A DNA stretch of 58,711 nt from the NCBI GenBank assembly GCA_963733195.1, contig CAVTCR010000084.1:1-58711 (forward strand), in the 5' to 3' direction. The notes beneath the pieces were generated by a model. It worked only from the letters and a program-made list of their open reading frames with translations. It was not told the DNA's origin and did not search any database. The position numbers were made by a program, and so were the translations under genes. Every line of letters starts with the position of its first letter. Position 1 is the stretch's first letter. The stretch is from an uncultured delta proteobacterium (GTDB taxonomy: Bacteria; Desulfobacterota; Binatia; Bin18). This document shows, in pieces, positions 56,061 through 58,711 of the stretch.

Positions 56061-56273
56061 TTATGCAGCCTGATGTAATTTTTCTACTTGTTCGTCCAAT
56101 GTTCGTAAGACGGTTTGAATACCTTCCACCGCGGGTTCCTCAAAGAGCGGTTCACCACACTGCGGACACAGCCAAGCTGGCAGATCTTGCAGTACAATCA
56201 CATAGCCTTTGCGGCTATCGGTGAACGTCGCCGTTCCACGTTGTAACTCTGCTTGGCAGTGAAAGCATTTCAT
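56061..56273 (-). CDS. YgiT-type zinc finger protein (MqsA-like antitoxin)
   Basis: MKCFHC...LPAWLCPQCGE. Confidence 0.88.
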   Translation of the reverse strand: MKCFHCQAELQRGTATFTDSRKGYVIVLQDLPAWLCPQCGEPLFEEPAVEGIQTVLRTLDEQVEKLHQAA

Positions 56274-56590
56274 TACGATTCCTTTCTGCGTTGCCGCTTG
56301 GTTTCATCCCATTCCGTAGCATCCGGAATGTAGGCCGTGATGATAGCAAGATACTCGTCTTTTGGTGAGCAGACTACATGAATGATCCGCCCTGGGGTAG
56401 GCTCTCCTCTCAACAAGCAGCTGTGGCCGCGTATATCCTCAGGATAATCTTCAATCACATCTGCTTGTAACACGACTTCTCGTACTTCCGCCGCAGTAAT
56501 CATCCGGTCAGGTTTGTTCATTTGCCGAATGGCATGAGGAAGGAACAGCAACTTCTTTGCTGCGGTTGTTCGTATACGATCTTTGATCAT
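56273..56590 (-). CDS. DUF4258 family protein (putative toxin)
   Basis: HAIRQM...VIEDYPEDIRGHSCL...HVVC...IITAYIPD; coupled to the YgiT gene. Confidence 0.85.
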   Translation of the reverse strand: MIKDRIRTTAAKKLLFLPHAIRQMNKPDRMITAAEVREVVLQADVIEDYPEDIRGHSCLLRGEPTPGRIIHVVCSPKDEYLAIITAYIPDATEWDETKRQRRKES

Positions 56591-56610
56591 CCCGGTCTCG
56601 TATTCTCCCT

Positions 56611-56691
56611 TTATGCTAACTCACCGAGCAGCTCCTTCGCCTCTTGCAAGTCTTTTGTATCAAAGCCTTCGGTGAACCAGGAGAAGATTTT
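56611..56691 (-). repeat. Duplicated 3' end of a cyclase gene ([25 protein letters not shown])
   Basis: Isolated ~26 codons between two TA pairs, with no upstream cyclase sequence. Confidence 0.85.
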
Positions 56692-56708
56692 CCCTTCTCG
56701 TCTCGAAA

Positions 56709-57168
56709 TCATTCTTGACCTTTGAGATCGTCGAGAACAAGCACTCGGAGTTCTATCGAATGTTTGAGTGCAGAATCATTTTCGTCAAAAAAGCTTGGCA
56801 TCCAGCGGTCAATGCCGCCGCGATTTGCAGTGCATCCGGGGTGCGGAAACGATAACGAGCACGCAAATCGGCTGCACGCTCAGCAATGACAGAATCAATA
56901 GGGAGCAGTTTGAAATTGCGGCTATGGAAGCAGTAGGTCTCGGTACTCTTGTTCGACTGTCGTGTTACCTTTCTGCTTTGGCTGGGTAAGCACCTCGGTT
57001 AAGGTCACCATCGAGCTGTATCCCAGCATCGCTCCAGTATCTACGCGCCGGATAAAGTCACGCACGATATCCCCATAGATAGGATGGCGCTCCACAAAAG
57101 TAGATCAACGGCGCGGTGTCGAAGCCTAAAGCGGTGACACCAACCAGGACATCATCAGCCTTGCTCAT
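56709..57168 (-). CDS. PIN-domain (VapC-like) toxin, frameshifted
   Basis: GFDTAPLIYF, SSMVTLTEVL, LRARYRFRTPDALQIAAAL; end approximate. Confidence 0.82.
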
Positions 57169-57406
57169 GGTCGATGGTCCCACTCTTTGCGCAGCTCATT
57201 GACATACTCTTGGGCGTCAATTCCCTCCCATAATTCCGCTCCAAGACCTTCGAGTTTAGTAAACTTCGCTGACGAGGTTCTTCAGTCATTGTCGTTATAG
57301 CCAAATCGTGAGCAATTATCGCTACCAGGCGTAGCCGTTCAGCTGTGGGTAACAGTTTGATTTGCTGCTCGTACAATTGTTCAGCAGTCGTAGTGCTTAT
57401 TCACAT
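57165..57406 (-). CDS. Putative antitoxin partner of the PIN toxin (frameshifted)
   Basis: IKLLPTAERLRLVA...LEGLGAELWEGIDAQEYVNELRKEWD; ATGA overlap with the toxin; start uncertain. Confidence 0.7.
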
Positions 57407-57464
57407 GCAACCTCCCATATCCTTTCTACGATAGAGATCGTTAATGATTCAATGGCTCAATCAC

Positions 57465-58711
57465 TCAATGACTCAATTCTTCAACAGTTCTTTCGCCTCT
57501 TGCAAGTCCTTCGTATCAAACCCCTCGGTGAACCAGTTGTAGATCTCGGATAAATGGGGTGGAGCTTCATGTGCTTACCTTGTTGTTGCCATAGACGTGC
57601 GAGGCTGGTGGCGGCACGGAGTTCGAGCGACTTCGCCTGCTGGCGACGAGCAACTTCAATCGCTTTTAGAAAACATTCCTCAGCTTCGTCAACTTTGAAC
57701 TTTGAACCTTGAACTTTGAACTGTTGAAGCGTCAGCTCGCCTTTCAGCCGATATAGCTCGGCTTCGTAGTACCGTTCCTTAGTTTTCTCCACCATAGCGA
57801 GCGCCTCGGCCAGAAGGGAAGCCCCTCTTCGGCCTTCCCGAGTCTGCCATATGCCTCAGCCAGAAGACCAAGAAAATGCGGTCGCAGGAGGCCTTACTCC
57901 TCTACGGCCTGTAAAGGCCTCAAGACCCTGCTGTATTTGGGTTGACCCCCTCCTCTCCCGGTGCCGGCCTTCCGAGCAGGTCTGTTGGTTCAACTCATCG
58001 CCCCGCCCCGGAATCCTGTTCCCATAGTCAGCCAGAAAGGAAAACCCTGGTCGGTTGCGAGCGCGATGGCGGCCTCTGCTCGCTCCGAGCCGCCTGACCT
58101 TCTCGACGGAATCTGATGGAACCAACACGAACAGCTCAAAGCAAACCCTAGGGTAAAAGGATGAGAGAAATCACGAAGTAAAGGCAAATGCCTCCTGGAC
58201 CCTCTTCAGGGCCTGGTCCGGATAGCCCAATATCCACAAAGTCCAGGCAACATGGACGCGCAAAAATACGCCAGGGTCTTGGCCGTACAGGAGGATATTC
58301 GAGCGGTGTTTCCCGGGGTCGTAGAGGGCGAGCCCCTGCTCTAAGGTGGCGGGCTAGGAGCCAGCTCCCCCAAGAAAAACAAAGTCAATCCCAAGCGCAT
58401 AGCAAGCTTCGACAGAAGAGCCGGATCCTGTTCCCGTACTGGGCGAATGTAGACACTGCTCACCCGACTCCCGCGCGGGGTGGAAGTCCGGCTGCGTGAC
58501 ATAAAACGTCCACAGTCCCCGCAGCACCGGAAAGAGTTGCGGGGTCTCGCCGATCTGCTGACACAGTTCGCGCGCTCGCGCGTAAGTCCTGCCTACTTCC
58601 GGGGCGCCGTAGCCCTTGATGGCCACGAAAACATGACCAAGTGTCGTCTGTAAGACTAGCTCTTGCGAAGTTCGCTCTGGGGTATCCGGCCCTGAAGGTC
58701 TTCAACACCAC
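57465..58711 (-). CDS. Cyclase-AAA-TPR-type protein, C-terminal part only (copy 4; runs off the window; error-rich)
   Basis: [46 protein letters not shown]; ends EELSH*. Confidence 0.85.

Follow-up and report, generated by a model that had tools for sequence, protein, structure and literature searches.

We analyzed a stretch of DNA of 58,711 nucleotides (nt; hereafter the window) that is the entire contig C84 of an uncultured delta proteobacterium (genome G000; bin of 6.95 Mb in 87 contigs, 93% complete and 4.5% contaminated). At one end of the window, on the minus strand, the 3' end of a gene for a cyclase/AAA/TPR protein (cyclase-4) is followed by an antitoxin gene and a PIN-domain toxin gene, then by an isolated copy of the conserved cyclase tail (tail B), and finally by genes for a DUF4258 protein and a YgiT-type zinc-finger protein. 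We find it reasonably probable that tail B is the scar of the loss of a cyclase paralogue in a hugely expanded, decaying family, lying between two addiction modules. Two modules would then have been joined here, each composed of the 3' end of a cyclase/AAA/TPR paralogue and a directly following small type II toxin-antitoxin operon: the first would be cyclase-4 with the antitoxin and the PIN toxin, and the second a former cyclase with DUF4258 and the YgiT finger, from which the cyclase would have been removed except for its last ~90 nt (tail B), which abut the PIN stop codon. Both operons would have survived because the loss of an addiction module is counter-selected, and the largest deletion that could be tolerated would have begun immediately behind the PIN stop and ended short of any upstream sequence on which the DUF4258 operon depends. 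That both operons were kept because addiction modules resist deletion is suggested by analogy: part of a preprint on the Vibrio superintegron describes toxin-antitoxin cassettes as stabilizing that array (bioRxiv 10.1101/2023.11.17.567518).

The first-pass annotation, made from the sequence alone, had described this order of genes, and every part is present where it was placed. Cyclase-4 occupies 57476..58711 (minus strand) and is represented by its C-terminal TPR region, which is broken by several frameshifts and cut by the contig end; TBLASTN searches with full-length family members cover 57476–58689, and a DNA profile built from the last 600 nt of the cyclase family matches 58110–57449 (E 3e-140). 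This region ends in the WFTEGFDT...LL tail of the family, but what was named cyclase-4 is only a C-terminal fragment, the cyclase and AAA domains lying past the contig end. Its conserved tail (tail A, 57465..57544, minus strand; W codon 57535–57533, assembled stop 57475–57473) had been read as ending in EELSH; as assembled it ends in KELLKN, and the EELSH ending requires one added base near 57480, which one metagenome contig (a paralogue-level match) does carry as an extra G. The domain names used for the family (cyclase, wHTH/AAA, and TPR; STAND-like) were read from translations and not from a family scan.

The antitoxin gene (57165..57376, minus strand) contains one frameshift and has its C terminus, ending in EGIDAQEYVNELRKEWDHRP, in another frame. 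It matched no family in Pfam and NCBIfam scans, and intact homologues of 86 amino acids (aa) are found upstream of PIN genes in three relatives (G002, G022, and G014). The PIN-domain, VapC-like toxin gene (56709..57168, minus strand) is split by three frameshifts into four frame pieces, and its start overlaps the antitoxin stop as ATGA (57168–57165). Pfam model PF01850 scores 30 bits on the PIN fragment at 56783–56944 and 58.9 bits on the intact homologue from G002, and the pair has a VapBC-type layout, in which a small upstream gene overlaps the gene of a putative PIN-domain toxin. Isolated tail B (56599..56712, minus strand) includes a 33-aa open reading frame (ORF; 56712..56611, W codon 56679) whose ATG in turn overlaps the PIN stop as ATGA and whose final 22 residues are the family tail; family homology is confined to 56689..56599 (nhmmer, profile positions 574–664, E 1e-21). 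Tails A and B form a 60-nt direct repeat with 85% identity, 856 nt apart, and the tail motif occurs five times in the window, against zero expected by chance.

Both genes of the second pair are intact. The DUF4258 gene (56273..56590, minus strand) encodes a putative toxin of 105 aa (PF14076, 2e-18, 66.9 bits) that shares 88% identity with the homologue on contig C9 of relative G010, and the YgiT-type zinc-finger gene (56061..56273, minus strand) encodes a putative antitoxin of 70 aa (TIGR03831, 36.4 bits; cut-off 20.2). The latter protein resembles the N-terminal part of MqsA and lacks the helix-turn-helix (HTH); only the N-terminal halves of the MqsA_antitoxin model (PF15731, 25.6 bits, under the cut-off of 30) and of TIGR03830 (25.3 bits vs a cut-off of 61.8) are matched. 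Beyond this pair lies a convergent alpha-amylase-family gene (54492..55956, plus strand), split near 55300 as assembled, which we used as an anchor for the locus.

Among 40 relatives, the two modules are found apart. The end of a cyclase followed by the antitoxin and PIN genes, then by unrelated genes with no second tail, occurs at four loci (G002:C54, G022:C688, G014:C28, and G010:C84). The DUF4258 gene with its adjacent YgiT-finger gene is kept in four relatives, and what lies upstream of it there differs. At G010:C9 and G018:C521 (83% and 79% nucleotide identity, respectively) the pair is preceded by a tail, and the match begins at the W codon. At G018:C521 the upstream cyclase frame is open through 530 aa to the contig start, and at G010:C9 (4208–4873 of locus L096) a 222-aa ORF joins family residues 4–95 to residues 1098–1171 in frame. 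At G016:C11 the upstream cyclase is without the tail, and at G024:C95 the upstream gene is unrelated. In G010 and G018 the next cyclase begins ~15–25 nt past the YgiT stop, indicating that these loci are tandem arrays. A MaoC-like gene compared between the same two genomes as the 83% DUF4258/YgiT unit has 82% identity; thus, the identity of the unit is no outlier and recent transfer is not needed to explain it. The G010:C9 pair is also accompanied by a full paralogue of 1,173 aa (stop to stop), and the 222-aa fusion ORF could be an expressed mini-protein.

Loss of a whole cyclase that leaves a tail stub is observed directly at the amylase gene. Contig C618 of relative G001 encodes an intact amylase homologue (490 aa, stop to stop; 88% nucleotide identity) and, converging with it, a cyclase that is also intact; the interval between the two is free of toxin-antitoxin genes. 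On metagenome contig L098, whose amylase shares 90% protein identity with that of G001, only a ~88-nt remnant of the tail of that cyclase is left; it lies behind an unrelated gene and has the same 3'-flanking sequence as in G001. Together, the separate occurrence of the modules and these stages of cyclase loss (G018, G010, and G016; G001 vs L098) support the interpretation of tail B as a deletion scar. The first-pass annotation had itself conceded that its own proposal, an integron-like accretion of cassettes directed by cyclase tails, would fall if the tail were the residue of a full cyclase deleted in close relatives, and this is largely what the full cyclase at G018:C521, the internal deletion at G010:C9, and the G001/L098 comparison display.

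Decay of this kind can be followed across the genome. TBLASTN searches with seven long members as queries delimited 233 family loci in G000 that total 527,577 bp, or ~7.6% of the genome, and a six-frame search found 144 exact WF[TS]EGFD[TS] motifs. The 3'-end profile identified 181 tails, 166 of which are not cut by contig ends. Measured as contiguous family homology upstream of the tail end, the tail-bearing pieces are at least 2,500 nt long in 118 of these 166 cases, and the remaining 48 are truncated: 2 are of 1,500–2,000 nt, 20 of 200–1,000 nt, 12 of 100–200 nt, and 14 shorter than 100 nt, so that 26 tails are shorter than 200 nt. The 5'-end profile identified 84 gene starts, of which 78 run for at least 550 nt, 6 are shorter (150–450 nt), and none is shorter than 150 nt. 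Short 3' stubs are thus common in this genome and 5' stubs are rare. Another cyclase starts within 1.3 kb in 24 of 164 regions downstream of tails, which indicates tandem arrays. With the family so expanded and in decay, scars consisting of the tail alone are common.

Some features of the family complicate comparison of its members. Tail-to-tail identity has a median of 80% and a best value of 88%; tails are too short and too uniform for tail B to be traced to a source paralogue by similarity, and an attempt to do so failed. Likewise, the body of cyclase-4 is 64–68% identical to sequences from relatives and to its own paralogues alike, and no clear orthologue emerged. Clustering of the 1.5 kb of DNA downstream of tails into cassette families yielded mostly singletons (143 components from 164 regions), too scattered to define any. 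Arrays of phased 8-nt repeats (ATTGANNN, e.g., GTCATTGAGTGATTGAGCCATTGAATCATT) follow many tails, in the window at 57440–57480 and 29915–29945; they seem to arise from the region of the stop codon after ...ELSH, and 10 of the 12 phased clusters of at least three units in the genome lie within 120 nt of a same-strand tail end. A literature search with the motif string FTEGFDT found no papers. The Binatota genome paper (PMC8262859), whose main text was searched by terms, mentions there neither adenylate cyclase families, toxins, paralogues, or integrons nor a family expansion of this kind, and the supplementary gene tables of that paper might list these families.

Several observations weigh against the deletion scar. 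None of the matches listed for the 40 relatives spans the junction between PIN and tail B, nor does the predicted ancestor (cyclase-4, antitoxin, PIN, full cyclase, DUF4258, YgiT) appear among them. Random deletion predicts neither the excess of tail pieces shorter than 200 nt nor the 3' bias of the stubs, although the greater detectability of the very conserved tail, perhaps the only part in which old stubs are visible, may explain part of this. A simple scan found no sigma-70-like promoter in tail B, a weak test for this phylum, and the idea that tail B is kept as the DUF4258 promoter is so far without support. On contig C59, a short tail follows a toxin-antitoxin pair and is found after the same pair in another genus (G010:C113), so that this scar either is old or was made by a common process. 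Finally, past the amylase gene the sequence of G000 is similar to that of L098 for only ~13 nt after the amylase stop and is also unlike that of G001, which requires at least one more rearrangement at the locus.

This last point bears on an unlikely alternative to the deletion of a cyclase in place, namely that illegitimate recombination set cyclase-4, the antitoxin, and PIN beside an already truncated tail with DUF4258 and YgiT, or the reverse, with no tandem array ever present at this site. The region around the amylase is a rearrangement hot spot: its neighbors differ among G000, G001, L098, L099, L100, G018, and G010, with L099 and L100 having still other genes beside the amylase, and the changes involve whole cyclases and unrelated genes and not an exchange of cassettes at fixed sites. 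A contig from another sample (run X5) links the amylase, YgiT, DUF4258, and the start of the tail but has 80 other letters in place of 132, and the lack of a clear orthologue for the cyclase-4 body is likewise in keeping with such an event. Against it, a truncation and a joining would be two independent events, as opposed to one deletion in a tandem array, and G010:C9 and G018:C521 offer examples of tandem arrays in which toxin-antitoxin pairs separate the cyclases. The loss that would have produced tail B may have been one deletion within such an array or one part of a larger rearrangement. In G002, a relative of the same genus with a 100% complete genome, no match to the alpha-amylase-family gene was found, and the gene is present in G001, G018, and G010.

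The first-pass annotation had also held that this architecture recurs, and recurrence is indeed evident. The other case that it reported in the window is real: on the minus strand, the cyclase-2 tail at 30769 is followed downstream, at 29937..30719, by a small ORF (30719..30405), an HNH gene (30408..29995; Pfam, 2e-12), and then a 52-nt tail end (29988..29937, ending in LQETKALVEELDH; nhmmer E 0.008). Genome-wide, 11 short tails lie 134–2,262 nt downstream of another same-strand tail. The genes enclosed by two tails were annotated in six cases: the antitoxin and PIN on C84, a DUF2281-like gene (weak, 20.1 bits, under the cut-off) and PemK/MazF on C29, an unknown gene and DUF2283 on C59, a short-chain dehydrogenase and a glutathione S-transferase on C11, an F420H2-dependent quinone reductase on C81, and an unknown gene with a weak TPR-like match under the cut-offs on C6. 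The content is therefore toxin-antitoxin-like in three of the six and metabolic in two, and in all six the stub starts ~0–32 nt past the stop of the preceding gene (offsets by eye). Toxin-antitoxin genes do gather at cyclase 3' ends: 9 of 30 PIN genes lie at most 1.5 kb downstream of a same-strand tail, compared with ~2% expected (binomial P 5e-9, the copies not being independent), as do 2 of 10 DUF4258 genes. Genes for HNH endonucleases follow tails in 4 of 164 regions and form one protein cluster (e.g., C18:79379 and 29995–30408 in the window).

These regularities invite a second alternative, in which the tail serves as the entry point for small gene sets, either through a site-specific or homing mechanism that acts in trans or through homologous recombination inside the tail. 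Each insert would then be flanked by two tail copies, much as integrative islands are when they enter tRNA genes at their 3' ends. The over-representation and 3' bias of short, tail-only copies, their position close behind the preceding stop codon, the 11 paired tails, the enrichment of PIN genes, the HNH genes, and the arrangement of cyclase, toxin-antitoxin pair, and tail that C59 shares with another genus all speak in favor of such entry. So does a group II intron, beginning with GTGTG, that is inserted at an identical site (directly behind CTGGAAG, 58 nt past the first W-codon base) in three paralogue tails of G000 (C1:67564, C3:88971, and C35:5391; loci L197, L198, and L199, respectively). 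Rfam model group-II-D1D4-2 scores ~111 bits in all three copies, and L198 and L199 also match Intron_gpII (domain V) at 55.9 bits; the copy on C3 is ~680 nt long and without an ORF, and C12:88339 is an uninterrupted paralogue of the C3 locus. These insertions make the family tail a proven homing target of one mobile element, a group II intron.

Other results count against entry at the tail, which we regard as rather unlikely. Among 27 tyrosine-recombinase matches (PF00589) in G000, none is on C84 and none lies within 1.2 kb of a tail, the nearest lying at a distance of 1,236 nt and most at more than 8 kb; serine recombinases were not searched. No attC-like fold exceeds shuffled sequences in tail A (z +1.1 and +0.7), and the modest fold of tail B (z –2.3 and –1.9) is due to the 6-bp GAGAAG/CTTCTC hairpin at its junction with PIN. 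The start of the stub is not constant: 74–291 nt are retained, and only 52 nt in the HNH case; copies begin anywhere from ~240 nt before the gene end down to its last 52 nt. Stubs are also no closer to the tail upstream of them than to the tails of random paralogues. Ranked among ~180 tails, the similarities of the 11 pairs fall at 1, 22, 24, 32, 43, 49, 52, 74, 123, 169, and 169, which is evidence against an origin by duplication, and the pair studied here (85% over 60 nt, rank 43 of ~180) falls short of the identity of island-type att copies. Moreover, both modules are attached to cyclases in relatives, where partly deleted cyclases are observed. Some apparent cassettes have the look of genes that were already in place when cyclase copies arrived next to them and then degenerated, since a homologue of the quinone reductase in G003 (C352, 83%) has no cyclase homology in its 3.6-kb locus and the loci of the MaoC-like gene (a name based on its translation and not on any family scan) in G002, G010, G011, and G013 likewise have none. 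The proposed integron-like capture thus finds no support in nearby tyrosine recombinases, in the fold of tail A, in the variable boundaries, in the metabolic cargo, or in the similarity of flanking tails.

A stronger version of entry at the tail, which we think improbable, would make the 60–75-nt tail of ~180 paralogues a genome-wide landing pad at which a trans-acting, tail-directed process places small gene sets (toxin-antitoxin, HNH, or metabolic) and leaves a tail copy at their far end, thereby generating the 26 stubs and their 3' bias. If true, it would be a recombinase-distant, protein-gene-based analogue of integron and island capture and a new way of gene accretion.

The quality of the assembly affects how the genes at this locus are to be read. 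The antitoxin and PIN genes are both present, as the first-pass annotation had it, but neither is intact as assembled: the antitoxin has one frameshift, PIN has three, all of them in homopolymer runs as read from the sequence, and cyclase-4 has several. No public sequencing run contains more than a 0.12 fraction of the window's words, and we compared contigs from four runs. The extra T at 57096 in PIN is missing from a 265-nt contig of another sample (one mismatch), and the base at 56926, also in PIN, is missing from a second contig of other samples. Unrelated genes are split by single-base frameshifts as well, namely a glycogen-synthase-like gene (51143–52640, named from its translation) and the alpha-amylase-family gene. 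This pattern suggests homopolymer errors of the long-read type, worse in repeated genes. Homologues of the amylase and of a cyclase run unbroken in G001, and most frameshifts in the region are probably indel errors of assembly and not signs of pseudogenization; the PIN pair, read in this way, is therefore probably functional in nature. Frameshifts are far denser in the cyclase paralogues than in an uninterrupted 412-aa ORF at 52876–54114.

The same errors raise the question of whether the joint between PIN and tail B is itself chimeric, an artifact of a metagenome-assembled contig. Besides the many indel errors, the fragmentation and contamination of the bin would fit such a misjoin, and no contig that bridges 56690–56780 was found among the four public runs, in which uncovered parts prove nothing. 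Nevertheless, we judge an artifact very improbable. The two tails are 85% identical over only 60 nt, and their longest exact run (~17–20 nt by eye) would not suffice for repeats to cause a misjoin at the word sizes commonly used. In addition, the PIN stop and the ATG of the remnant ORF overlap neatly as ATGA, comparable layouts occur on other contigs and in other genomes, and contigs from other samples confirm the flanks on both sides. One X5 contig joins 56680 to 57573, and we set this joint aside because just 34 nt support one side, which probably come from a paralogue.

Two further observations concern the short interval (~29 nt; 56680–56705) that separates the PIN stop from the tail B W codon. 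A 6-bp inverted repeat without mismatches, GAGAAG-N7-CTTCTC, lies within it and is the source of the only fold signal in the region. The interval was also searched for what might remain of a cyclase start; only 6 nt (TTCTCC) match the common MKFS start, and they match the usual pre-tail codons equally well, which permits no conclusion.

Taken as a deletion scar, tail B implies that duplicated gene ends between cassettes need not signal a capture system, and that addiction modules may shape which deletions survive in arrays of paralogues. It also places on record a genome in which a single gene family accounts for such a share of the DNA and in which a group II intron targets the conserved tail of that family.

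The locus can be compared with several known systems. In mqsRA operons the toxin gene comes first and the gene for its zinc-finger partner second. The DUF4258/YgiT pair is similar in that the putative toxin gene comes first and the zinc-finger partner overlaps it by one base, but its YgiT protein corresponds to the zinc-ribbon half of MqsA only, without the HTH, and DUF4258 is not MqsR. The PIN pair is like VapBC in that the PIN gene shares 4 nt with a small gene upstream of it, and unlike VapBC in that the partner matches no described antitoxin family. Some genomic islands use the 3' end of a tRNA or protein gene as their integration site, which leaves that end present twice (attL/attR). Here, too, an isolated gene 3' end is found beyond cargo of foreign appearance, often including toxin-antitoxin genes, and only 3' ends are duplicated; unlike islands, these "islands" of 0.5–1.9 kb have no integrase in or near them, their tail copies are not specially similar, and the length of the copy varies.

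With the superintegron of Vibrio cholerae, as portrayed in the part of the account drawn on here, the locus shares unrelated type II toxin-antitoxin pairs interspersed in one orientation within a long array of repeated DNA. It differs in having no IntI, attI, or attC, in a repeat unit that is a 3.4-kb protein gene, and in boundaries that are not fixed. A shared role, stabilization against recombination among ~180 paralogue tails, is plausible by analogy; the resemblance to integrons thus concerns a possible role and neither mechanism nor membership. Ordinary deletional decay differs from what we observe in the strong excess of very short 3' stubs and the near absence of 5' stubs here. Even so, like the pseudogene remnants of other decaying paralogue families, the family in G000 comprises pieces of many sizes, with internal in-frame as well as terminal deletions and with a full gene opposed to a stub at orthologous loci. 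As it stands, we regard the locus as an example of ordinary processes in which a hugely expanded STAND-like family decays to 3' stubs and the toxin-antitoxin operons among its copies are retained.

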